Part shown: positions 12,038 through 39,533 of the stretch, one piece after another
Position numbering within the stretch: the first letter of the stretch is position 1
Layout: every line of letters starts with the position of its first letter
Origin: Eledone cirrhosa
Lineage: Eukaryota
Reading direction: 5' to 3'
DNA length: 64,000 bases
Assembly: GCA_964016885.1 (NCBI GenBank)
Contig: OZ024743.1
Location: forward strand, 313,472,001-313,536,000
Program-made: the position numbers and the translations under genes
The notes under the pieces: model-generated
What the model was told of the DNA's origin: nothing
The model's database searches: none
Seen by the model: only the letters and a program-made list of their open reading frames with translations

Positions 12038-13940
12038 ATGTTAAACGAAGCTAACGAAAATAGTGGTGGGGGGACAGCAAGAGTTGTAAGCTCGCACGCT
12101 TTAGTCCCCCCTTCCTTCCCAACTAATGTCATAGAGAAGGAAAGAAAAAATAAAATAAAAACAGACGAATGTGCCGAGAAAAATGACGGAAACACAAATC
12201 TGGACATTGATTCCAACAACAAAAAAAAATTTGAAAAATTGCATGACAATATTAATAGCACAAACAAAGACACAACAAACACAAAAATAACATTTGAAAA
12301 CAACATCATAACAGAAAGCAAAGCAGACGACAAAGTCAACACCAATAATATTTCATTTGCACAAACAACAAAGAAATCTTTGACATATATACCTGAAAAT
12401 ATTTCAGATGTGGCACAAATAATTATAAACGCCAAACAATACATAACTCAAGGGGAAAATGGTATTTTATCGGTAAAAAAGCCTCAAGAACTCACCAAAG
12501 ACATTGAAAGTGGACGGTCGTTTTCCGCACCATCAACAACATTTCTAAAAAACCTCAACAGCCAACACAAACAGAAATCAAAGCAGTACTTACAGAAGTA
12601 CTTAATGAAACCTATTTCATAAGAAGAGACAGACTGTATGGAAGCCTAGCGATTATTGTGAAGAACGAATCGGCGGCAAAAAATGTCCTTTGTCGCCGAT
12701 TCGTTCGACAAATTTTACCTTTTATTCATCTTATATGGGTAAAAGAACTCAGCGCATATGGCGGGATGCAATGATGCCAGATGTGGACTACTGCTGGCTC
12801 ATAGCTGGCTTCATCGATCCAGCGAATGACAACGTGATTTCCATTGGGAAAACCACAGGCAATGCGTTCAGTGGAACAGGTATAGAACTTGTAGTGCAAA
12901 TGAAGCCTGAACGCATCGCCCAAATACCCGACAGAATCCTATTAGAAGGCCACGGGTATATAAACATTAGCGTGGAGGGGAGAAGGCCGTCCTGTCATAT
13001 CTGTGCAGGTAGAGGGCACCTGAAGGCGGCTTGTCCCCAACTCAACAAAAAGAAAACCCTGCTACCAACACCAGCTCCACCACCACCACCACAACAGATA
13101 AACAAACAACAAAACTCAGTCCCACCCAAACCGTCCCTCAGTAAAACTACACCACCACTACAACACAAACAGTCACAACACATTACCCAAAAACAAAACA
13201 CAGTCCCACCCAACCCCTCACTCAATAAAACAACACAACCACCGCAGCCACAACACACAACACAGTCTAACATAGTGACATCCATCTCCCTCACAAAGAA
13301 AGCCAACACGGAAACATTACCAGCAAACATACCTCTTCCCTCCAACACTGAAGATAACCCAACGAATTCGGAGGAAGAAATGGAGTCCTTCAGACAGATT
13401 AAAAGGAAAAAAAGAAAACATGTGCAAAACACACAAGGCCAAACAACCCCTACCCAAATGTCAACACAATCCAACAAAACACAAAACACCCCTCCAGCAA
13501 CAAACAAAACCAAACCTGCCCCTCCCCTCTTCGAAACACTCACACCATCCGAAAAAAAGACATTACACTATACTTACATCAACAGAAACAATAATAAATT
13601 AAATGAATTCATAAACAATAACCCTTCGGTACAAACCGAAGGTGTAAACTTTGTTTCTTCAGAAAACTACCCACATTTAAAATTAATAAAGATCCCAATG
13701 AACCTCTACCAAAAACCAAAAAAGGATTTTAAGGAGAACGTAGGACCACCCGCTGTCAAACCCATAAACCGCGTCCTACTAAAAAGCTTTCCCCCTCCCC
13801 TTCCCCTCACCAACACAACTCCAAACACCCCAACCTCACCACACACTGACGACCCCACACCACCACAAGACACCCCTTCACCCAACACCCCGGACCCCAT
13901 GGAAGTCGTGCGACCCGAACCCCGGGAAGCAGAAAGGTAG
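12038..13940 (+). pseudogene. Tx1-A ORF1 (gag-like, CCHC zinc knuckle, P/T/Q-rich linker), disrupted near 12620-12690
   Basis: SFAQ motif, IPDRILLEG, CHICAGRGHLKAAC (CX2CX4HX4C) and basic KRKKRK. Confidence 0.85.
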
Positions 13941-13979
13941 GTCTCTACACTCTCCTTTGGCTTTGCCGCCCACATCGAT

Positions 13980-16900
13980 GTGTTAAGAGTAGGATGTTTG
14001 AATGCACGTGGCCTGGGCTCAACTTGGAAGCAAGCAAAGCTTCTAAATGACCTCAGGTCACGTGGTATAAATGTAATGGTTATCTGTGAGACTCGAATCA
14101 GCGTCGTGCGGCAGCTGGCCCCTACCTTCGATGACTTTGAGGTGCATGCATCTCTCTGTTAACCTGGAGGGGGAGGGGGGTTGTCGTACTGCTGGAAAAA
14201 CACCTGGGTCTCGCCGTACAGGTTGTTCACTCGGACCCGGAGGGTCGTTTGTTGGTGCTAGACGTTGGCAGTAGTGAAGGTGTGGCCTTGAGACTGGTCG
14301 CCGTCTACTCCCCTTTAGGAGCTGAACGGCCCGACTTCTTCCAGCGTTTGGAGACTTTTCTGGGAACGTCGCGTTCCCTGCTTCTAGCGGGGGATTGGAA
14401 TGACATCCTAGATGCACGTTGGGACTATGCAGGAGCATGTCCTAATAGATGGGGGTGTAACAGCCTCAAGGGGTTACTCGACCGTTTTAACTTGGTCGAT
14501 AGATATCGACTAGATTTTCCAACTGTGCCAGCCTGGACTTGGACGAACCAAAGTGGTCAATCTAGATCGTACTTAGATAGATCCTTAGTTAGAAGTAAGG
14601 ATAGGGACATATTAAGCTGTCCAGAAATGCTCACGGTTGGCTATACGGATCACAAATTAGTGACCTGCGTAGTCAATCTCGAGAAAACACATAAACAGGG
14701 TCCCGGTTACTGGAAACTTAATTTGTCTTTACCGGCAAAAGAGACTTACAGAAACCGGATTAGCAGATTAGTTGAGGAGAGGTTGACGGGTGCAATCGTC
14801 AACAACCGATGGTGGGCATCTCTCAAAAGAGAGATTAGAACAGAATCAATAAGTTATAGCAAGATGTTAGCTGCCGATAGGAATAGAAACAAGAAAGAAT
14901 TAACAGGTAAATTAGAAGAGGCAATCAAGAGCGAAGATGTGGCCAGAGTGCTGGCATCGAGGACGGCCTTGAACCAGTTTTTCGATGCAAAGCACGAAGG
15001 CTGCGTCATTCGAAGTAAAATACGTGCTCTAGGTAATGAGGGGGCCAAAGCCGTTGGCTGGGCCCGCGTGACAGAAGCTAAGAGTGGAAATCGATCCACC
15101 ATCCGGTCTTTGCAAGACGAGGATGGACAGGTGATCCGGGAGCCTAAGCAGATGTGCGAGGCCTTTCAAAGGCACTTTGCCCGATTATTCGGGGGAGGCG
15201 AGGGTCCGGGCAGGGACGTGGATTTCGGTCCATACCTCGACGGCCTGCCGCGTCTCTCGAGCGAAGAGGCAGAGTCCTGCGAGGGACCAATCTCGGCTGA
15301 TGAGATCGGAGATGCGCTGAGCCAATGCAGCAAACGCAAATCTCCAGGTCTCGATGGTATACCTTACGAACTTTATTTAGCAATGCCGGTCTTTTTCTCC
15401 GAACTCCTCGAAGGGGTCTACTGCAACTGGCAGCAGAACGGGAGAATTCCTTGTTCTGTAGCCAAGGGCGTAGTCTCGCTGGTGAGGAAGGACGAGAACA
15501 AGGGGGATAGTATAAATGATTTTCGGCACATAACCCTGCTAAACACAGTTAAAGATTTTGGCCAAGGTGTTAGCAAAGAGGTTGGCGCTTGTCGTGGGTG
15601 GCTTGGTGGGAGACGCGCAGACATGTGCTGTCCCATCCAGGTCAATTCACGATAACATCCATCTCATGCGATACATCATAGAGAGGGTTGGCAACAAACC
15701 CGGCTTCGGTGGGGCCCTGATCGACTTGGATCAGTCTAAGGCCTTCGATAGGGTCGACCATGGTTACCTGGATGCGGTGCTAGCGGCGGCTGGGTTCGGT
15801 CCTGTTTTCAGAGGCTGGATCACTGCCTTACATAGCAACCACATCTGTTCTAGGATCAAGGTGAACGGCTACCTTTCGAAGCCGTTCGAAATCACACGAT
15901 CCATTCGACAAGGGTGCCCTCTCTCATGCCTTCTGTACGTATTGACTCTCGAGCCTTTACTGAGGAAGTTGGAGTTGTTGCAGGGTATCCCCCTGGAACC
16001 AGGATTGAGCAAAGCGGTGTCGGTCTACGCCGATGACGTAACAGTAATGGTATCGACCGACTCGGAGATCGAGGCGATCGGTACCTTACTGGAGGATTAC
16101 GAAAGGTTGTCAGGAGCGAAACTGAACCGGGAAAAATCCATCGGGCTGCAACTCGGAACGTGGAGAGGCAGACCGATGCCTCCCGACGGTGTCGTCGGAT
16201 ACTGGACGGAGGGCCCGGTGAAGTTGCTTGGGGTCTGGTTTGGACCGGACCTCCAGGTGGAAAAGAACTGGGACGAGGTTACGAACAAGGTGTTTGCACT
16301 AACCCAGAAATGGGCCAAGTGTAAGCTGTCCCTAAAAGGTCGGGCGGAGGTGGCGAACATTTACATAGCGTCCGTCACTTACTACCGCCTGACTGTCGTG
16401 CCTTGCCCTTTCTTTGGAAGAAGCGCCCTCCTATGGTGAGAAGATCCATCTGCTGCCAACAACCATCGAAAGGAGGGCTGAGGATGCCGTGGTTGATGAT
16501 GCGTAGGCACGCATTAAGGCTACGGCACCTACAGGTAGTCCCCACTGGTCAACCGGTGTGGGCTCCGTTCGTGAAACGAGCCTTTCCGAGACTCGTCTCG
16601 CTCACCGAGCTGCAGTCCTAGGTCAAGCAAAGATCCGGAAAACTGGGAGACTGGCACACTGAGTGTGCCCAGGCGCTCAGGGCTCTCTGGCAAGCGGGCC
16701 AGGCCATCGGTGGAGAATCCACCTCATCATTCTATAGAGGGCTGGTGGCTAGCAGGGGCGATGACACCCTTGGAGAATCGCTGGACATGGAAGAGGACGA
16801 ACTGGCCAGCCTGTTCGGTAGGACTTGGGCCCGGGACCAATGGACAACTTCCAGAAGTCACTAGCCTGGCAGTGCTACCGGGGGGCTCTACCCGGTCGAG

Positions 16901-18981: not shown

Positions 18982-21208
18982 ATCCTAAAATAATTAATTT
19001 ATCTAAAAGAGATCTTGACAATGATGAAATGCAAATTCTGCCAAAAGGACTGAAATTCACACCGACTCCAACAGTCAACCACCAAGAACTGAAGGAGGAT
19101 ATCCAAGAATTCTGTCGAAAATTACGTCTTGTAGAATTATTCGCTAATAAAAGTAATGAGAGTGATGAATCACTAGTAAAGAATAAATCAAATTTCACTC
19201 CGCCAAAAGGAAGAAATATCTATCTCGACCAATACATTGACATCCTGTCTAAATTTTCTCTTAGACGTAATACTAATGTTAGTCCAAACATTAACAAATC
19301 AGAAATGTCTGCACTTAAACGTATACAAAATGATAAAACAATAATAATTAAACAAGCAGATAAAGGGGGTAAAGTTGTTATAATGGATACTACAAAGATT
19401 TGGTTGAGGAACAACTGAAAGACACAACATTCTATCATGAAATACCGTCAAATATAGACCACAACATCATGAAGAAGATCAACAACCTGGCTTCAAAATA
19501 CCACAACTCACTTACTGATAAGGAAAGAGACTACATCACCAATTTTGAGCCAAAACCCAGCAACCTGTATGGCCTACCGAAAGTTCATAAGTCAAAAGAA
19601 ATACAACTGGCAGTAAGAGAACAAAACAGTGAGTACATTAAATTACTACACCCAAAAGACTTAAAACTTAGACCTATTATAGCTGGTCCAACATGCCCCA
19701 CCCACCGTCTAAGCAATTTTGTTGACATTATTTTGAAACCACTATGTATTCACATACCCAGTTTCATCCGGGATGATATCGACTTCCTGTCCCATCTTCC
19801 CAAAACCACGGAAACGAATTCACTTCTACTCAGTTTTGATGTGGTAAGCCTTTATACCAACATTACACATGATTTAGGAATAACGGCGGTTAAATACTGG
19901 GTAGAAAAACATAGAGAAGTGATTCCCATCAGATTCACAGCGCCATTTATATTAGACGCAGTTAAACTTATTCTGGAAAACAACACTTTCTTCTTCAATG
20001 GAAAGAATTACATCCACATTAGAGGCACAGCGATGGGAATGAAGTTTGCTCCCGTTTACGCGAACTCTGTAATGGGATACTTAGAACAACAACTCTACCA
20101 AGAAACAGAGGAAAAATATAGTACTGACTTAAGAAAGTACATTGAAAAATCTTGGAAGAGATACCTTGACGACTGTTTCATCATCTGGACAGAATCTCCA
20201 GATACTCTGGATGAGTTCAATATCCTCCTGAATAACCTACACCCATCTCTCCAATTCACAAAAGAGATGAGTAGCACCAAATTACCATTCCTAGATATAA
20301 TGATAATCAAAAACGACACCACCATTAACACGGATATATATTATAAGCACACAGACACTCATCAATATCTGAATTTTAAGTCCTGCCATCCACCTCATAC
20401 AAAACGCAACATCCCATACTGCCTAGCCAGAAGAATTTGTACCATTGTAGAAGATACGAATACCAGGTACAAACGCCTAACAGAACTAAGAGAATCTTTG
20501 CTCAAACAAAAATACCCATCTCTACTTATAGAAAATGGCATACAGCGGGCTATAAAAATACCTGTACAACAACTTAGGACAACCCAAGGAAGAAGAAACC
20601 AAGAACTGGTCATACCATTTATAATGACACACAACCCATGTCACCAGAATATCTTCAACACTGCCAAAGCAAACCTACCGATCATTGCTCAAAGTAATGA
20701 ATTAAAAGGCTTAATCACAGATCGATCTTTGACTCTTAGTAAAAGACAGCCAAAAAATTTGAAGCAATTACTAACAAAAGCAAAGTTTGACCTTAACAAC
20801 AAAGACCAATCATTCACTGTATCTAAATGCAATGATAGTCGATGCGGCACATGTCAATCCATACACGCCGGTCAATATATGAAAACAAAAACTGGAAAAA
20901 TATTCCCAAATGCAAATATGAACTGCAAAAGCAGAAATTTAATTTACTGCATTAAATGCCCGAATTGTGAAGAACTATATGTCGGTCAAACTGGAAATGC
21001 ACTATCGGAACGTGCACGGGTACACCGTCAGCAAATCAGAGACCCAAATGTCCGTCAGATACCCCTAAGTAACCATCTAGCAACATGTGGTCAGGGAATA
21101 TTTATAATATTCCCATTCTACAAATTACACAGCCCAAGTGAAATCAAGAGAAAAATCAAAGAAAAGAATGTTATTGATAAATTCAAACCCAAGCTAAATG
21201 AACAATAA
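18903..21208 (+). pseudogene. PLE ORF2: RT plus GIY-YIG endonuclease, one frameshift near 19390
   Basis: IINLS...KGLKFTPTP, IIKQADKGG, LYGLPKVHK, LRPII, FDVVSLYTNI, GTAMG, RYLDD, LPFLD, SCHP, CxxxxCxxC, LIYCIKCPNC...YVGQT. Confidence 0.93.
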
Positions 21209-28651: not shown

Positions 28652-28700
<49 letters not shown>

Positions 28701-28895
28701 CGAATGTAGAAAAGTAGCACACAAGTTGATATGTATGTAAAAACAAATATAGAAAGTAAAAAGATTTTTTCAGTAGAAAATGTTGAAGAGATATTTTCAG
28801 TGAAATATCAAAACATTAATTTACTTACAATACTGGTTTCAGCAGTTTATGCATTGTCAATTGCGGATATGCAGAATATTGTTAAGTTGCATATT

Positions 28896-28897
<2 letters not shown>

Positions 28898-28963
<66 letters not shown>
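28898..28963. repeat. (TAA)n microsatellite, left edge of the Dong/Tx1 nest
   Basis: About 22 perfect TAA units. Confidence 0.95.
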
Positions 28964-28966
<3 letters not shown>

Positions 28967-29701
28967 AGAAGGAATGCTAATGGCTGCGCAGGAGCAGGCC
29001 CTCAAAACGAAGTGGTTGAAGCACCATATCTACAAGGAGGAGGCTAGCCCACTGTGCAGGATCTGTGGAGAGAGAGAGGAGACTGTGGCTCACATTGTGT
29101 CCGAGTGTAAACACCTAGCCCAGACCCACTATAAGGGCTGGAGACACGATGTGATGGGCAGGGTGATCCACTGGCACCTGTGCAAAGTAAACAATTTACC
29201 ACATTCTGAGAAATGGTATGAGCATAGGCCAGAGGCGGTGATGGAGAACAATCAGGTGAAGGTGCTGTGGGATTTTAGGATACAGACGGACAAAAAACTG
29301 GAACACAATAGACCTGACCTGGTGGTTGTGGACAAAGAAAAAAGATCGTGTCTGATTGTGGATGTGGCCTGCCCGTTCGACACGAGAGTGCAAGAGAAGG
29401 AGAGGGAGAAAATTAACCGATACCAGGACCTAAAGTGGGAGGTGAAAAGGATCTGGAACTGCCATGAAGTCAAAGTGATCCCGATTGTCATAGGCGCACT
29501 GGGGACTATCTCCAAAAGTTTCCAGGGATGGTTAAAGAAAATCGGCCCCTTCACGCTTTTTGGAACGCTTCAAAAGGCATGCTTGCTTGGAACAGCAAGA
29601 ACCCTCCGATACGTCCTGAATATCTGAGGCTGTAGGTAGTAGCTTGATATTCAATCCAACGGACTTTCCAGTTAACCAACATCAATGACTGAGATTCAAG
29701 G
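28964..29701 (+). mobile_element. R4/Dong-type RLE non-LTR element D1 (5'-truncated, open endonuclease domain)
   Basis: AAQEQAL, CRICGEREETVAHIVSEC (CCHC), RHD, NRPDLVV...DVACPFD...EKINRY, PIVIGALG; (TAA)n on both sides. Confidence 0.92.
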
Positions 29702-29976
29702 AATAACAACAATAGTAATAATAATAATAATGCTTTCTTTATTAACCACAAGGGTTTACATAAAGTAGACATTAAGGACAGTGCAGGACAATACAGGCCG
29801 GTATAAATGGGCATTTCTGCGTGTAAAAAAACAGAGGATGTAATAAAAAATAACAATGAAAAATTCCCCAATAGGGGGGAGACTTCGGAGGGACATTTGT
29901 GGAGAAACCCCATTAAAAGGCCACAGTGACCCTGACCACCAGGGCAAGTGCCCTCTCCCAGTTTTCCACCTTTAAT

Positions 29977-32900
29977 TTACAGACAGATACTCAGAGTAGT
30001 CCCATTCACACGGGCTATTCTTGCCTTTCTCACCCATCTTTCAACAAAATGATGGGAAGAGAGCACTTCCCTTTCTACCCTGATTTTCCTTTTAAAATGA
30101 AATTTGAAAAAGTTAATCAGGGCATCACCGAAGAGGTAAGTGCTTGTCTTCAGCCCTTTCAAACGTGTCCACCATACTATCTCTTTCGCCATGACCACCA
30201 GACAGATAAAAACTGCTTGCCCTTCCCGGCTAAAGGAGGAGGGCGGGGCAATCCTCACGATGGACACAGCTGATAGCTGGATCCGTCCTACACGAGACAG
30301 CAGGTGTTCGACATAAACACACAAGTCAGCAATGCTCGGACACTGGACCAGTACGTGCAGGACGGTTTCGTCGCCCTGCGCGCACCTCGGACATGCCCGG
30401 CTGACGGCACCTCCATGCCTGTAGAGTTTATCCCGAACTGGCAAAGCTCCTCGGTAGCACTGCCAGGCCAGGGATTTCTGGAAGTTGTCCATAGGCCCCG
30501 GCCCGAAAGTTCTTCCGAAGAGATTGGCTAGTGGATTTTCGTCGACGCCTAGAGTTTTCCCAAGTACGTCGTCGCTCTTCCCTTCCACTAATCCTCTATA
30601 GAACGCCAAGGTGGAGTTTTCACCGATCACATTGCCCGATTGGTCGAGGGCTGTGAGCGCCTGAAGACATTCCAGTCTCCAAGCACACCCTCTCGGTCTT
30701 CGCTTGACCCAGGACTACAGCTCCGTCAAGGAGACGAGCTGGGGAAAGACGCGTCTAGCAAACGGCGACCACACCTGATCACCGTCGAGGAAGAGGAAGA
30801 GATGTCGTAGCCTGAGCGCGTGTCTGCACATCATTCCCAGCCCTACACGTAGCGAGTGTTGACAACAGATGGACCGCCTGACCATCGGAGCGTGTCCCTT
30901 CCACAAAAAGCGAAAGGGCAAACGCTCCAGCGCAGTCAGGCGGGGCTTAGGACAAGGTACCACGGACAGGCGGTAGGAGATGACGGACGCGATATACGCG
31001 TTAGCCACCTCCGCTCGACCTTTCAGGGATAGCTTCCTCTCGTCCCATTTCTGGGTGAGAAAGCCACCCTGCTCGTCACCTCTTCCCAGTTTTTGTCCGT
31101 CTGGAGATCCGGACCGAACCAGACCCCGAGCAATTTAACCGGTACGTCCGTCCAGCGCCCGACGACGCTGTTTGACGGCATGGACCTGCCTCTCCAGGTG
31201 CCGAGCTGCAGGTCCACTGACTTTTCCTGGTTGATCATTGCTCCTGTCACCGCTTCGTATTCTCTTAGTGTAGTGCCGATCGCCTCGATGTGTTTGGCGT
31301 TCGACACCACTACGGTGACATCGTCCGCATATGCTGACACAGATCTTCCGCATCCTAGTTCGCGCGGGACCCCCCCTCAACGTCTCCAGTTTGTGCAGTA
31401 ATGGCTCGAGAGTCAATACGTACAAGAGGGACGAGAGGGGACATCCTTGGCGGACCGAGCGCATGATGTTGAACGGTTCCGAAAGGTGACCGTTCACTCT
31501 CACTACAGAGCAGATGTCGCTGTGCATGGCAGCGATCCAGCCTCTGAAGACGGGCCCAAAGCCAGCCGCCCTCAGGACTTCCGCTAGGTAACGATGGTCG
31601 ACCCTATCGAAAGCTTTCGACTGATCTAAATTGATCAAGGATCCACCCGTGCCAAGTTCCCTAAATACCCTCTCTACGATGTATCGCATGAGGTGGAGGT
31701 TGTCGTGGATGGATCTGTCGGGAATGGCGCATGTCTGCGCCTCTCCCACCAGACCACCAACGACAAGCGCCAACCTCTTTGCTAGCAACATGGCGAAAAT
31801 CTTGAACTCTGTGTTTAGCAGAGTTATGGGCCTAAACTTGTCTATGTTATCCCCCTTGTTCGGATCCTTTCTCAGCAGCGCCACAGCTCCTCGGCTCACA
31901 GAGCTGGGAATTCTCCTTGTCTGTTGCCAGTTGTAGTAGACGTCCGTTAAGAGGCCTCTGAACAAGTCTGGCATCTGTACGTAAAGTTCATAGGGCAGAC
32001 CATCCAAACCAGGCGCTTTACCCCTTGTGCAGCCAGCCATTGCCTCCCGTACTTCAGCGGCTGTTATCGGCTTTTCGCAACACTCCGCCTCAGTGGCCAA
32101 GAGCCGCGGCAGTCCGTCGAGGTAGACACTAAAGTCCATCCCTCGATCCGGCCCGCCGCTGCCCCCGAAAAGCTGAGCGAAGTGTCGCTGAAAAGCTTCA
32201 CACATTTGCCCGGGATTGAGTAGCATGCGCCCGTCGTGGTCCACCAAAGACCTGATCGTGGCTTTGTTGCCACGACGCGCCTCCGCCACTCGGGCCCATT
32301 GAACGGCTTTCGTCCCCTCGTATCTGAGAGCACGCACCCTAGCTCTGATAACGCAGCCTTCGTGCTTTGCATTGAATAATTGGTCAAGGGCCAATTTCGC
32401 CCCAAGTACGTCGGTCGCGATGCCTTTGCTAAGCGCCTCGTCTAATTTTCTAACTAATTCTCCCTCTGCTCTATTTTTCTCTCTTGCTAAAGCCTTACTA
32501 AACTAATGGACTCTATTTTAATTGCTCTTTTCAGAGCAAACCACCACTTGTTGTTGACGATGGCCCCCGTCAACGCCCGCTTAACTAGTTCGCTAATGTG
32601 GTCTCTGTAGGCCTTGCGCGCTGGTAAGGACGCGTTTAGCTTCCAGTAGCCGGGTCCTCGTTTATGAAGCCTATCTAAGTCAAGCACACAGATCACGAAT
32701 TTGTGGTCCGTGTAGCTGACTATCTTGAATTGTGGACAGCCTATGCTAGAGCTATCTATTTCCCTACAAAATACTCTATCTAGATATGATCTGGATGACC
32801 CTATGCGATTTCTCCAAGTCCACATTGGCACATTCGGGAAATCCAATCAGTACCTGTCAGACAGTTCAAAACGCCTGAGCAGGTTGGTGAGGCTCTTGAA

Positions 32901-33382
32901 CCCTCCTCCCCTATCCGCTAATCCCACACAGTCCAGGCGTGCATCTAAGATCCCGTTCCAGTCGCCCACTAACACTAAAGATCGGGACGTTCCAAGAAAG
33001 GTCTCCAGACGCCGGAAGAAATCAGGCCGCCCTGCTCCTGTCGGAGCATAGACGGCCACTAGCCTGGAAGCTAGCCCGTCTCCGCTGATCACGTCTAGCA
33101 GCACCAACTTACCTTCTGGGTCCAGGAAAATGGCCCGTATGGCGAGATCCAAACCTCTCCGAAAAAGCACAGCAACCTATCCCTCCGATCCCGGACGGCT
33201 GGGAGATGCGTACACATCGTAGCCGCCGAAGATCGGTGCGAAGGCCTGTGCTTCGGAGATTCTGGTTCTCTGATGGCCACTACATCTATGTTTAGTGACC
33301 TGAGGTCGTTGAGCAGGTGGCCCTGCTTCCATGACAACCCCAAGCCACGCGCATTTATGCTGCCTATTCTGAGTGAGATCAT
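29977..33382 (-). pseudogene. Tx1-B ORF2 (APE, RT, zinc finger), frameshifted
   Basis: SINARGL, GDWNG, SYLDR, TDHK, GPGYWKLN, KAPGLDG, FRPITLLN, LDQSKAFDRVDH, RQGCPLS, YADD, CPRC...ETVLHVLVQC. Confidence 0.92.
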
Positions 33383-33416
33383 GTTGAAAAGGAGTGGAAA
33401 AGATGGGAAAGACCAC

Positions 33417-34750
33417 TTACCTTACTTCTCGTAGGGGAAGGACGGTTTTTCCATCCTTTTTACTGCTTGTGGCCTCCTCAGGAAGGATGTCCTTATAAAT
33501 CCTCCTGGAGAGTGCTTGTCGGAAGTCTCCGATGTCTTTGGGGAATTTTTGTTTTAGTGTCATGTACGTTTTCTGTGTGATGCGAGTGATTTGTATGCGT
33601 GGAGGTGGTGTGAATTTTTGGGTTGTTGTGTAGTCTTTTTCTGTGAAGCTGGTGTTGTGTTGCATGTAGTGTAATAATTGGTTGTTGTTCAAATTTAATG
33701 CTGTGTAGTGTGTATCGTTTTGGTTGTTTTGTTTTGTTTGCGTTTGTTGTGGGTTTGTTTCTGTTACGCTTTTTGGTTACTTTTGGGTGTAGGTGATGGT
33801 GGTGTTGGGGTTAATGAATGTGATGGTGTTGGTGTTTGGGTTGATGGGGTTGGTGATGCTGGTGTGGATGGTGGCATATCTGTCCTAACTTTTTTGTTTG
33901 TTAATTTATTTGCTTCCCTCTGTATTTTGTTTTTGGAGGGGGAAGGAAGAGAATTTTTTCTTTTTTGGTTTCTTTTTTTTTCTGATACCGTTTCCCACTC
34001 CTCGTCATCTGTCTCCAGTTGTGATAGGCCGGGGAGTGGAAAATCCTCCACAGGCGTTAGTTTTGGTTGTGGCTTCGTGGATGGTGTAGGCGCTGGTGCT
34101 AGTTCTGAAGCGTTGGGTGGTGGTGGTGTTGGTTTTGCTGGTGGTGGTGGTGTTGGTTTTGCTACTGTTGCTAGGGTTGTTGCTGTTATAGTTGCTTCTG
34201 TTGTTGCTGCTACAGTTGTTGCTGCCATCTCTGCTACTGGTGGTGTTGATGGTTGTGTCACTGGGGCTGACCCTGTACCCATCTTTCTCTACCATTCTTT
34301 TGGCTTCTTATAATTCCTCCTGAGTTACATGGATCGCTTCGCATGTTTTTGCTACTCTGGCAAAACTCAGGGTAGTTTTCTTAATTTCATTGTTGCTGTT
34401 GATGTTATCGTTATTTTTGTTATTGTCAATTTTAGTTTCCGTTGTGGTGGTGGTGGCTTCAGTGGTGTTCGGTGTGGAAGAGTTCATTTTGGTTGAATTC
34501 ATTTCGATATAATGAGTTAATTTATTTTTTCTTTTGTTTCTGTTGTCGCTGTGGTGGTGGTGGTGCGGGTGGCGGCTTTAACACCTGCAGTCATTGGTAA
34601 TGGCGGGAAATGAATGTCTGGCTGAAACAAATTTAAAATATTGCTACTGCTTATATTTTTAGTGTTGGCAAACGTAGTAATATTTACAATGGTGGTGTCG
34701 GTGTGAGGTGTTAGTTTGTGAGGAAGGCTCTCAGCTACTGAGTCGGCCAT
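33417..34750 (-). pseudogene. Tx1-B ORF1, degenerate; central CCHC-containing part apparently missing
   Basis: T/N-rich N-terminus, LSFARVAK, P/T-rich linker, EEWETVSEKKR and a C-terminus similar to Tx1-A ORF1. Confidence 0.65.
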
Positions 34751-34989
34751 GATTTTTCAAAGAAAATCTTTTTTTGTTTGATAATTATAAAAAGTTTAAA
34801 TTTGGGGCTTAAGACCCCAATCTTTTTGAGTGTCCTTTTCAGAAATCAATGTATGTGCACTTATATACAGTTAACAATAAACATTTTCCATAAATGGCAA
34901 TTTTAAACAACTGAAAATAACAAACCTTTGCGGAGCTCACGAAGATACGATTTACTACGTAGGTCGCCAATAATAATAATAATAATAAT

Positions 34990-36096
34990 GAACAAAAAGA
35001 AATGGATAGGAAGACTAGGAAGCTATTGACTATCTACAACATGTTCCACAAGAGGAGTGATGTCGATAGACTCTACTTAAGGAGATCTGAAGGTGGAAGA
35101 GGTCTTATTAGGATAGAGGACTGTTTTCAGATGGAGAAAAAGAACCTACTCAAATACGTGACCGATAGTAAGGAGCCAATGCTCAGAATTGTACTGAAGG
35201 AGAGGACAATAGACCAGGGGATGTCCAAGGAGGAAATAACAACAAGGAGAAAGAGCAACCTTCATGAAAAATCCCTTCATAGTACCTTCTTTGAGGAAAC
35301 GGAATTCAGAGATCCACAGACATGGAACTGGTTGAGAAGAGGAGATTTTAAAAAGGCTACATAAGGAATGCTAATAGCTGCGCAAGAGCAGGCCCTCAAA
35401 ACGAAGTGGCTGAAACACCATATTTACAAGTAGGAGGCTAGCCCTCTGTGTAGCATATGTGGAGAGAGAGAGAGGAGACTGTGACTCACATTGTATCCGA
35501 GTGTAAACACCTAGCCCAGACTCACTATAAAGGGTGGAGACACGATGTGATGGGCAGGGTGATCCACTGGTACCTATGCAAAGTAAACAATTGACCACAT
35601 TCTGAGAAGTGGTATGAGCATAAGCCAGAATCGGTGATAGAAAACGATCAGGTGAAGGTGCTGTGGGATTTTAGGATACAGACGGACAAGAAACTGGAAC
35701 ACAATAGACCTGACCTGGTGGTTTTGGACAAGGAAAAAACTTCGTGCCTCATTGTGGATGTAGCCTGCCCATTCGACACGAGAGTGCAAGAGAAGGAGAG
35801 GGAGAAAATTAACCGATACCAGGACTTAAAGTGGGAGGTAAAAAGGATATGGAACTGCCATGAAGTCAAAGTGGTCCCGATTGTCATAGGCGCAATAGTT
35901 ACTATCTCAAAAAGCTTCCAGGGATGGTTAAAGAAAATTGGCCCGCCCCGCATTTTGGAACACTTCAAAAGGCATGCTTGCTAAGAACAGCAAGAACCCT
36001 CCGATACGTCCTGAATATCTGAGACTGCAGGTAGTGGCTTGATATTCATTTCAACAAACTTTCCACTTAACTAACATCAATGACTGAGACTCAAAG
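34990..36096 (+). mobile_element. Dong-type element D2 (5'-truncated, stops)
   Basis: DRLYLRRSEGGRGL, RLE domain and the same 3' UTR as D1; (TAA)n on both sides. Confidence 0.92.
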
Positions 36097-36114: not shown

Positions 36115-38514
36115 CTCCATCACTACAGTACTACTATCCCATCACCACCGTCACCACTGCATCATCGTTACCACCACTATTCCGTCACTACGTCCTGTTA
36201 AGAGAGGGATGGTATTAGTGCCACGACACATGACTAGAAGCGAGGAAGTCACCAAAAGATATAAAAAGATATAAATAGACTTATTTAGTGACCCGGTCAA
36301 ACAGCTAACAACATAATAATTATTGTTGTTGTATCTCTAAACTCTCTCAAAATGTTTAGTTTAAACGATGTCAACTAATAATAATAATGATAAGCAACAA
36401 GTCGAAACATTACAGAACAGAACACAGACAAAAACAAACGCAACAACAAAAGAAAAACAAACTAAAAAAGTTTTGAACTTAACAACCCCTACTTCCCTCG
36501 TAGCTAAATTCAAAAACAGCAGCAACAGCAACTACAACACTAGTAACTGATGTTACTGGCCTTGAATAACAAAAAGAAAAAAAATGAAGTCAGACATTCA
36601 AACATTTCAATGAAACTTGAGTCCTTATTGAATGGGACATTCCAAAACATAGACACTAAAAACAGATTGGAAATAAAGTACAAAACTAGGGGGAAAAAGC
36701 TAAATATTATCATAGAGGAAGTGAAGCAACGCATTGTCGCAAAAAGTGCAAAGCTTAGGCGGTATGAGAAGAGGGTCTGTCAGTATAGACAGAACCGCAT
36801 GTTTGACAACAACCAGAAGATGCTGTTTGGACAGCTTGAAGGGAAAGAAAGAGGCAACGACGTGATCCCAGAGGCGGAACAAACTAAGACATTCTGGAGA
36901 GAAATATGGTAGCAGGATGTTGAACATAATAGTTAGGCGGTGTGGATTGAGACAGTACAAAAGGAGGTTAGTGAACAAGCACACCAACAACCTGATTTGC
37001 GTATCACAGTTGAAACTCTTAAAGGGGAGGCCAAAACACTAACCAACTGGAAATCAGCAGGCCCAGATGGTGTGCAGGGGTATTGGATTAAACATATAAC
37101 ATCCCTCCACCCGAAACTGACAACCATGTTCAATGACTTCTTGATGTCGGCTGAGGTACTAGAGTGGTTGACAAATGGTACCACAGTTCTGGTAATGAAA
37201 GACCGAATCAAGAGTAATGATGTTACCAACTACAGACCTATCACATGTGTGTCCGTAATGTGGAAACTGTTAACAAGCATTGTGTCTGAGGAAATCTACC
37301 ATCACCTCCACATAAACAACTTGTTATCAGACGAACAGAAAGGATGCCGAAAGAAGTCCCATGGTAAAAAGGACCAGTTACTTATTGATAACATAGTAAT
37401 GAGGGATTGCAAGAGGAGACACACTGGTCTTGCCATTGGATGGATAGACTACAAAAAGGCAGTCGACATGGTACCTCATTCTTGGATAACCAAAAGCCTA
37501 GAGATGTTCAAGGTGGCAGATAACATCAGACAGTTGTTGAGCAAAAGTATGAAGTCCTGGAAAACAGAGTTAACATCGGGTGGAGAATTCTTGGAATGCG
37601 TTAAGATCAAGAGAGATATCTTCCAGAGAGATAGTTTGTCCCCTCTGCTATTTGTCTTTGCCCTGATACCACTGACTGTTATATTGCGAAAAGTGAGAGC
37701 AGGATACAAGTTGGGAAAAGAAGAGCTTACCATCAACCACCTCCTCTTTATGGGCGATCTTAAACTCTTTGGGAAGAGTGAGAAGGAGTTCGATGTACTT
37801 GTTGACACTGTCCGTATTTTCAGCAATGATATATGTATGCAATTTGGTATTAATAAGTGTGGAGTCCTAGTGATGAAGAGGGAAAATTGAGCAGAAGCAA
37901 CGGAATTCAGGAACCAACAGGTGAGATGATAAAGGAAATTGACACTGATGAAGAATACAAATATTTAGGGGTACTGGAGCCGGATGACATCAAGAACAAA
38001 AAAAAAACGAAGGAATTGATAAGATCTGAGTACATTAGGAGAGTAAGGAGCGTATTAAAATCGCATCTAAATAGTAGGAATGTCATAAGTGCAGTGAATT
38101 CCCGAGCTGTGTCTATTATTAGGTACAGTGCGGGAATTCGGAAATGGAATGTTGCTGAACAAAAAGAAATGGATAGGAAGACTATGAAGCTATTGACTAT
38201 CTACAACATGTTCCACAAAAGGAGTTATGTCGATAGACTCTACTTAAAGAGATCTGAAGGTGGAAGAGGTCTTATCACCATAGAGGACTGTGTTCAGATG
38301 GAGAAAAACAACCTGCACAAATACGTGACTGACAGTAGGGAGCCAATGCTTAAAATTGTACTGAAGGAGAAGACAATAGACTAGGTGATATCCAAGGAGG
38401 AAATAACAACAAGGAGGAAGAGCAACCTTCATGGAAAATCCCCTCATAGTACCTTCTTTGAGAAAACTGAATTTAGAGATCCACAGACATGGAACTGGTT
38501 AAAAAGAGGAGACC
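36115..38514 (+). mobile_element. Dong-type element D3: 5' UTR piece fused to the RT region (internal deletion at ~36612-36618), 3'-truncated
   Basis: 36115-36618 is homologous to the D4 5' UTR (43005-43320, reverse); then WKSAGPDG, NYRPITC, EQKGC, WIDYKKA, DSLSPLLF, NHLLFMGDLKL. Confidence 0.88.
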
Positions 38515-38538
38515 ATAAAATATGTATATTAAGGAATA

Positions 38539-39533
38539 GCGCTTGGAAACTGGAATGTCTCCAGGCCCTCAATGCCCTGTGCCAGCAGGGCATCAGTATC
38601 GGTGGAACATCCACCTCGGCATTCTATAGAGGACTAGTGGCGGGGAAGAGCGACGACGTTCTCGGAGAGATGCTGGTCGTCGAAGAAGATGAGCTCTTTG
38701 CTCTCTTCCGGAGAACTTTCAGCCCAGGGCCTATGGATAACTTACAAAAATCCTTGACCTGGCAGTGCTACCGGGGAACGTTGCCGGTTCGAGATAAGCT
38801 CTATAGGCACGGAAGTGCCGTCAGCCGAGCCTGTCCGAGATGCGCGCAGAGCGACGAAACCGTCGTGCACGCACTCGTTCCGTGCCCGAGCATTGCTGAC
38901 TTGTGGAGCTATGTCGAACAGTTGTTGTCGCGTGTAGGACTGATCCGTTTATCGACTGAGTCCATTGTGATGATGGTCTCGCCGTCTTCCTTCGAGGAGG
39001 AAGGGCAGGCAGTTTTCATCTGCCTGGTGGCCATGGCGAAAGAGATTGTGTTGTAGACAAGGTTGAAAGGTTTAAAGACATACTTTCCTCTTCGGCGAAT
39101 CCCTAATTAACTTTTTCAAGTTTCACTAGAAAAGGGAAATCAGGGTGGAGGGGTAAGTTTGTTGAAAGGTGGGTGAATGTAGCGAGAATGGTCCGAGTGA
39201 ACGGGACCGCTCTGAATATACGCCTGTAATTTGAGAAATGGAAAAATTGAGAGAGGGCACTTGCCCTGGTGGTCAGGGTGGCCATGGTCTTTTGTGTGGT
39301 TTTCCGCACGAGTGTCCCTCGGAGGTTTCCCCCCTGTTGGGGAATTTATCATTGTTTCAATTTTCATTTTTATTGTTTATATATATATATATATGTTTCT
39401 ATGTATTTTTTTCTTTTCTTATATAAATAATAAAAATCTTTACACGCACAAACCCCACATCGTACCGCCCTGTACCGTCCTGTGCCGTCTGTAATGTTTT
39501 TCTTGATGTCAGCCCTTGTGGCCAATAAAGAAA
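38539..39533 (+). mobile_element. 3' part of a Tx1-B-like LINE (Tx1-C)
   Basis: WQCYRGTLPVRDKL...CPRC...ETVVHAL; 3' UTR ends cccttgtggccaataaagaaa followed by (ATT)n. Confidence 0.9.

Follow-up and report, generated by a model that had tools for sequence, protein, structure and literature searches.

A conserved U1-type donor motif at the ORF1 end of Tx1-type retrotransposons in Eledone cirrhosa and its place in a predicted long-range helix

We propose, with a confidence that stands about midway, that the 51–52-nt segment between ORF1 and ORF2 of the Tx1-type retrotransposons in Eledone cirrhosa, previously put forward as a mini-intron, is the 5' arm of a predicted clasp that closes on the end of ORF2. 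According to this model U1 would bind the conserved donor at the start of the segment but no splicing would follow, and closure of the clasp would conceal both this donor and the ORF2 start. That the helix and the donor motif are under selection is very probable. The window analysed here is a stretch of 64,000 nt (contig OZ024743.1, positions 313,472,001–313,536,000). It contains copies of Tx1-A and Tx1-B, with the following features (a slash marks the proposed exon boundary).

29732..34968, minus strand: Tx1-B non-LTR retrotransposon copy, decayed, with (ATT)n on both flanks and an ORF1 about 0.6 kb shorter than in intact copies
33417..34750, minus strand: Tx1-B ORF1 remnant with the C-terminus PLREVR-stop; start approximate
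33415..33423, minus strand: Tx1-B U1-type 5' splice-site motif AAG/GTAAGT, +1 at 33420, containing the ORF1 stop
33383..33414, minus strand: Tx1-B ORF1/ORF2 spacer, pyrimidine-rich, complementary to the 3'UTR at its purine-rich start
33380..33382, minus strand: Tx1-B ORF2 ATG, within the proposed mini-intron
33369..33370, minus strand: AG of Tx1-B Arg5, the proposed acceptor; low-scoring, absent from the outgroup and paired in the predicted helix
33356..33422, minus strand: 5' arm of the predicted Tx1-B helix (donor, spacer, ATG and first ORF2 codons)
29942..30006, minus strand: 3' arm of the predicted Tx1-B helix (last ORF2 codons, stop and first 3'UTR bases); duplex −55.8 kcal/mol
29943..29950, minus strand: Tx1-B anti-donor CACTTGCC, predicted partner of donor positions −1 to +7
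29977..33382, minus strand: Tx1-B ORF2 (APE endonuclease, RT, zf-RVT), broken in the window copy
33107..33115, minus strand: second 9/9 donor-like match, in Tx1-B ORF2 over P-E-G-K codons; shared by B and C, while the other families have a weaker match or none
29817..29836, minus strand: strong acceptor-like site in the Tx1-B 3'UTR, the top-ranked AG in B; also in E, lost in A, C and D
29738..29743, minus strand: Tx1-B polyadenylation signal AATAAA
13934..13942, plus strand: Tx1-A donor motif AAG/GTAGGT over the ORF1 TAG stop
13935..14000, plus strand: 5' arm of the predicted Tx1-A helix
17335..17402, plus strand: 3' arm of the predicted Tx1-A helix, at the ORF2 stop; −48.7 kcal/mol

Pfam analysis of the Tx1-B copy L091 identified an APE endonuclease (PF03372) followed by a reverse transcriptase (PF00078) and a C-terminal zinc-binding domain (PF13966) in ORF2. 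ORF1 is a separate upstream ORF of 567 aa with a CCHC-like motif, for which no Pfam match was found. The Tx1-B copies examined have (ATT)n at both ends, while the Tx1-A copies examined are followed by TA-type repeats. Close homologs of the Tx1 element are named from Argonauta and Octopus. We provisionally take the elements to be Tx1 rather than L1, following the preliminary description and the general features of the clade; our tree comprised only the families studied here. Microsatellite-targeting non-LTR retrotransposons of the Tx1 clade (L1 group), such as Kibi and Koshi, have been described (PMC4494074), and for Octopus vulgaris a list of recently active families includes L1-Tx1 ones (PMC13282606). 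Kibi and Koshi share with the present elements the two ORFs, the APE endonuclease, RT and zinc finger, the insertion into microsatellites and the tandem copies. They differ in that the accessible part of their description mentions neither a conserved donor at the ORF1 end nor pairing of the ORF2 start with the ORF2 end (PMC4494074).

Compared with L091, the Tx1-B copy in the window lacks about 0.6 kb of ORF1 near 34266, including the zinc-knuckle region. Head-to-tail tandem Tx1-B copies about 5.9 kb apart, with (ATT)n between them, were seen in L092, L093 and L095. Repeat pieces on the opposite strand at 28700–29730 and 34990–35600 enclose Tx1-B in the window and also flank L091 and L097; we presume this repeat to be an R4/Dong-type element. 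The window further holds a third Tx1 copy, 5'-truncated and with a C-type 3'UTR (36937–39530), and a Penelope-like ORF with RT and GIY-YIG domains (19373–21208). A tectonic-3-like gene model of Octopus sinensis (P0102) opens with a piece of Tx1 endonuclease, which might represent exonisation or an annotation artefact.

The mini-intron signals are present exactly as first described. ORF1 of Tx1-B ends in E-V-R-stop over the donor, with the TAA at 33419–33417, a pyrimidine-rich spacer follows, and CAG/A places the AG at 33370–33369 inside Arg5 of ORF2; removal of these 52 nt is in frame. The Tx1-A counterpart, with its donor at 13937 and its AG at 13986–13987, spans 51 nt. The segment has GT...AG ends and a strong donor, as expected of a mini-intron, and the 51–52-nt splice is in frame in families A, B and E. 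ORF2 itself begins within the Tx1-B segment, the last 14 nt of which comprise its ATG (33382) and codons 1–5, and the ATG and first codons are kept in 30/30 Tx1-B loci. ORF2 of Tx1-A is already in the frame of ORF1; the window copy has ATC in place of the ORF2 ATG, which is found in all 29 other Tx1-A copies fetched. The caveat that the AG may simply reflect a conserved Arg codon was well placed: the AG is part of Arg5, the outgroup has AAC in its place, and the predicted helix pairs it with the far end of ORF2.

Families C, D (with subfamilies) and E came to light when the start of the endonuclease was searched with a degenerate pattern, and the donor motif is present in these too, behind ORF1 ends that can only poorly be aligned. 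The ORF1 frame was set by means of a C-terminal motif that is conserved, in a set of loci some of which overlap. The donor then lies in phase 2 in Tx1-B (43/46 main-class loci), in Tx1-A (23/28 loci) and in the one copy of family E. It lies in phase 1, with the ORF1 stop 5 nt further on, in C (8/9 loci) and D' (5/5). In one D subfamily (4 of 5 resolved loci, 15 in total) it lies in phase 0 and the stop comes 27 nt later. Tandem Tx1 arrays in two prokaryotic genome bins, which are likely to be co-binned animal DNA, were used as outgroup (68 loci, endonuclease 41% identical). Here the donor motif is located past the ORF1 stop in 58 of 61 loci and the ORF2 ATG follows a few bases after it, with no pyrimidine tract and with AAC where Arg5 stands. 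In O4, a sister family from the outgroup with 3 loci, the donor is missing from the ORF1 end.

Positions −2 to +6 of the motif (AG/GTAAGT), the span that pairs with U1, agree in 6–7 of 7 family representatives, and the flanking positions in 2–6 of 7. Fourfold-site identity to the outgroup ranges from 3/41 to 12/41, so that silent sites are saturated. Among the ≈280–450 GT sites of each element the donor is top-ranked in 9 of the 11 elements scored (15 were given, 4 were left unscored). The suggestion of a conserved donor is therefore supported: across related families AG/GTAAGT is nearly invariant whatever the frame of ORF1, in A–E as well as in the outgroup, except in O4. This places a conserved donor at the end of a structural ORF, as in copia-type elements. 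The phase varies (2, 1, 0 and post-stop) and so does not give a conserved product. It is hardly credible that Arg-stop or Gly-Lys codons gave rise to the motif by chance and that common descent has preserved it since. Codons can produce such a match, as seen from the second perfect one over P-E-G-K codons in ORF2 of B and C and a weaker one from E-R-W-V codons, yet the motif at the ORF1 end has outlasted three frame changes and a move into non-coding sequence while silent sites became saturated.

In the outgroup families, O4 included, the donor motif occurs a second time, on the ORF2 stop or directly behind it (L140–L207). Acceptor-like sites are found ≈40–290 nt past it, and the pair might represent a 3'UTR intron or a second U1 site. 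An 11/11 U1-complementary donor lies inside ORF1 in the outgroup subfamily O3 (L142:1469). The contigs of a genome bin labelled uncultured Arenicella, probably animal DNA, are made up of Tx1 units repeated head to tail every ≈6.5 kb (L140–L204, L206–L207).

Genomic copies lacking exactly the proposed intron had been suggested as a check, and none could be found in Tx1-B: a two-exon-flank pattern applied to the genome matched 2,520 copies with a gap of 50–54 nt and 0 with a gap of 0–25 nt. Spliced copies (SpIREs) of human L1 make up 116 of 6,609 copies, or 1.8% (PMC5860796). Applied to Tx1-B this rate predicts ≈45 spliced copies. Such copies are expected if the fusion is real, because the fused mRNA would then carry the RT gene and should be a template for its own enzyme in cis. 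An mRNA for ORF1 only would be without RT in cis, and the missing spliced copies are therefore compatible with it.

Splicing to any acceptor was addressed through the Tx1-B copies whose ORF1 end precedes no normal donor (33 + 39 + 15 rows, 84 distinct copies). The spacer is kept in 81 of these, and the other 3 are rearrangements which we rejected as spliced copies. L097 has a 346-nt deletion that starts from the donor, with a GG end and microhomology (L097:3480–3520), and L229 has an inversion with its breakpoint at the donor. In L228 a patch of ≈21 nt of the Tx1-B ORF1 end, stopping at the donor and with short microhomology, lies inside another repeat (L228:4270–4300). For Tx1-A, 0 spliced copies were found and the spacer is kept in 5/5 changed-donor copies, against 861 intact ones; for family D there were likewise none, the spacer being kept in 6/6 changed-donor copies, a count without a denominator. 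The changed-donor patterns covered B, A and D and are blind to A-final copies and to exons starting with GTA.

Among the joints listed in contigs of runs X1, X2, X4, X5 and X6 there is no 52-nt skip, and among the loose ends listed in the same contigs none is at the donor; the type of these runs is unrecorded, so that neither result bears on expression. A search for fused, longer proteins gave one ordinary ORF2 of 1,276 aa, which is weak evidence. Viral contigs gave no match, and metagenome contigs gave 2 distant loci that are uninformative.

The first reading of the segment, a 51–52-nt intron whose splicing controls an in-frame fusion of ORF1 and ORF2, is most improbable in the light of these data. 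The donor is perfect and the junction is in frame in A, B and E, but none of the 2,520 Tx1-B copies is spliced where the human L1 rate predicts some 45. In the phase-1 families the equivalent splice leads to a stop one codon past the junction, so that C and D would gain an immediate stop rather than a fusion, and in the outgroup, where the donor comes after the ORF1 stop, a fusion is impossible. In addition, the acceptor is weak and ORF2 retains its own ATG. Scored with a crude matrix, the Arg5 acceptor ranks 18–132 among the ≈190–400 AGs of 10 elements, and neither it nor the adjacent pyrimidine tract is conserved along with the donor, both being absent in the outgroup.

The main rival to the U1-docking mechanism is a spliced mRNA for ORF1 only. 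The donor would then be a working one, joined as in Ty1/copia elements to a distant acceptor past ORF2 to give a subgenomic RNA, and the helix would regulate the splice or bring its sites together. Every donor position spares ORF1 wholly or nearly so and removes the ORF2 start, and the outgroup has acceptor-like sites past ORF2. According to the same crude matrix a strong 3'UTR acceptor exists only in B and E; in B it is the top-ranked one and lies ≈125 nt beyond the 3' arm. A precedent is known from the Arabidopsis element EVD (PMC5580714). We nevertheless regard this explanation as rather unlikely. No distal acceptor is conserved across A, C and D, no Tx1-B retrocopy with such a junction exists among the changed-donor copies, where the search would have caught one, and the donor is itself a paired part of the predicted helix in B and C.

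For the preferred reading, the docking of U1 on an unspliced donor that a clasp can hide, part of the evidence comes from folding. In each of 15 elements we folded the region reaching from the donor to codon 9 of ORF2 with ≈905 windows of that element, and the best-pairing window is at the ORF2 stop in 13 of them, with thin margins (0.1–3 kcal/mol) in 4 of the 13. In the Tx1-A copy of the window the ORF2-stop window is second-best by 0.3 kcal/mol, and it is the best in L096. The old family F failed the helix test. The register is common to the elements: the first ORF2 codons pair with the last ones and the spacer pairs with the purine-rich start of the 3'UTR, which gives a predicted clasp of 65 nt with arms 3.4 kb apart. 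Full pairing of the donor, with the anti-donor, is predicted in B and C alone; in A, E and O1–O3 the helix covers part of it, and in D most of it is looped out. The anti-donor keeps T-(G or A)-C-C in B, C and O1–O3 and in B and C resembles the 5' end of U1. Both the pyrimidine tract and the AG of the proposed intron are explained by the predicted helix because they pair in it. The invariance of the donor is not explained by pairing, because the rest of the helix covaries.

In shuffling tests (300 shuffles each, two counts per element) the target was fixed at the ORF2 stop beforehand. The real energy was reached by 1 and 0 of 300 shuffles in B, 0 and 0 in D', and 5 and 12 in Dq, whereas support is weak in A (12 and 22) and D0 (32 and 31), and F fails (132 and 135 of 300). 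The ≈905-window scan and the outgroups were judged by rank and position, as a shuffle target would there be picked from the real sequence and thus be biased. When arms were swapped between families, B paired with B at −65 and with D at only −29 to −45, and D0 paired with D at −57 to −60 and with B at −48; C pairs with B almost as well as with C. Doubly changed columns are Watson-Crick in 110 of 318 cases compared with 35 in the swapped control, counted over 28 family pairs that are not independent. Between B and D0 this holds for 7 of 13 such columns, compared with 0 in the control, and the A–D pairs show no compensatory excess. The excess of G.U over A.C (68:49, p = 0.096) is not significant and does not settle which strand pairs.

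In the outgroup the predicted pairing lies at the same place. The best partner is ≈3,380 nt downstream in O1, O2 and O4 and ranks third in O3. The arms of O1 and O4 are written in unrelated letters, and each fits its own partner (−43 and −41) better than the other's (−28 and −18). The outgroup helix is centred on the ORF2 AUG, and O4 has kept it without a donor at the ORF1 end. Rfam gave only below-threshold microsatellite matches. A TURBS-like reading of UGGGA was dropped since the motif is variable among outgroup copies.

From O4, and from the centring on the AUG, one could argue that the clasp serves translational control of ORF2 alone by limiting reinitiation to full-length RNA, and that the donor is a separate signal such as a factor site at the DNA level. 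A conserved donor of human L1 does overlap a RUNX3 site (PMC5860796). We consider this combination improbable, as the conserved span is exactly the one that pairs with U1, the anti-donor T-(G or A)-C-C is kept in B, C and O1–O3, and a second such motif is found just after ORF2 in the outgroups.

How U1 docking and the clasp might act together can be outlined, tentatively and with somewhat less than even confidence, as a completion switch in which the U1 site guards the nascent RNA and the clasp, reaching over 3.4 kb, displaces U1 and clamps the ORF2 start once ORF2 is complete. While ORF2 is being transcribed the donor would be exposed, and U1 snRNP may dock on the nascent RNA without splicing it. 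The docked U1 would shield the transcript from early ending at the AATAAA or ATTAAA hexamers of the A-rich ORF1. When the 3' arm emerges 3.4 kb later the clasp would shut, displacing U1 and masking the donor, so that only finished RNA would be polyadenylated, exported unspliced and copied. The clamped ORF2 AUG would also limit reinitiation and thereby ration the ORF2 protein. AATAAA or ATTAAA hexamers are found 70–510 nt upstream of the donor in most families and are few after it within ORF2; O2 has none at all. In favour of this mechanism are the conservation of the motif independent of frame, the absence of spliced copies, the complementarity at one and the same place across families and the compensatory changes. 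It is weakened by family D, where the donor is looped out of the helix, by O4, which keeps the clasp but has no donor at the ORF1 end, and by the lack of hexamers in O2.

A structure-gated U1 site is known from foamy virus. At its major splice donor bound U1 suppresses polyadenylation, and a different RNA structure blocks U1 and permits polyadenylation (PMC3694450). The likeness lies in the gating of a U1 site by structure, which is predicted in our case. Foamy virus is, however, a retrovirus with local LTR structures, whereas the present element is a LINE in which the predicted mask lies 3.4 kb away and covers a start codon as well. In the shGAG RNA of the Ty1/copia element EVD, U1 at the donor has two roles, one in splicing and one in preventing premature termination (PMC5580714). 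As here, a conserved donor stands at the end of a structural gene; EVD differs in being an LTR element in which donor and acceptor are both conserved and splicing has been demonstrated, while the elements studied here have no conserved acceptor and no spliced copy was seen. Human L1 is likewise an L1-group element with conserved donors that mostly evade splicing, but its donor lies in the 5'UTR and has left spliced copies (PMC5860796), while the Tx1 donor lies at the ORF1 end and has left none.

For bicistronic LINEs it is still an open question how ORF2 is translated, how splicing is avoided and how full-length RNA comes to be favoured (PMC5009743; PMC3894237). If the completion switch is true, a single helix would link the completion of the transcript to its escape from splicing, to the formation of its 3' end and to the rationing of RT. 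The literature searched (mostly open access and without supplements) contained no description of a LINE with a conserved donor where ORF1 ends, of pairing between the two ends of ORF2, or of control by a completion switch in any LINE. As the arms, the anti-donor and natural compensatory variants are known, the helix can be tested by paired mutations. The thousands of young copies, each with a perfect donor, also bear on how often insertions disturb host splicing.

In run X4 the A-rich middle of ORF1 (window 33640–34300) is covered about 1,000 times more deeply than ORF2, with a peak at 33860–34080 and a drop past the hexamers near 33910 and 33699; the run type is unrecorded and depth on contigs cannot show ends. 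A hybrid copy (L104:3250–3360) combines a B'-type ORF1 end with a B-type spacer and ORF2, as would be expected after a switch on the donor or directly behind it, whatever its route.
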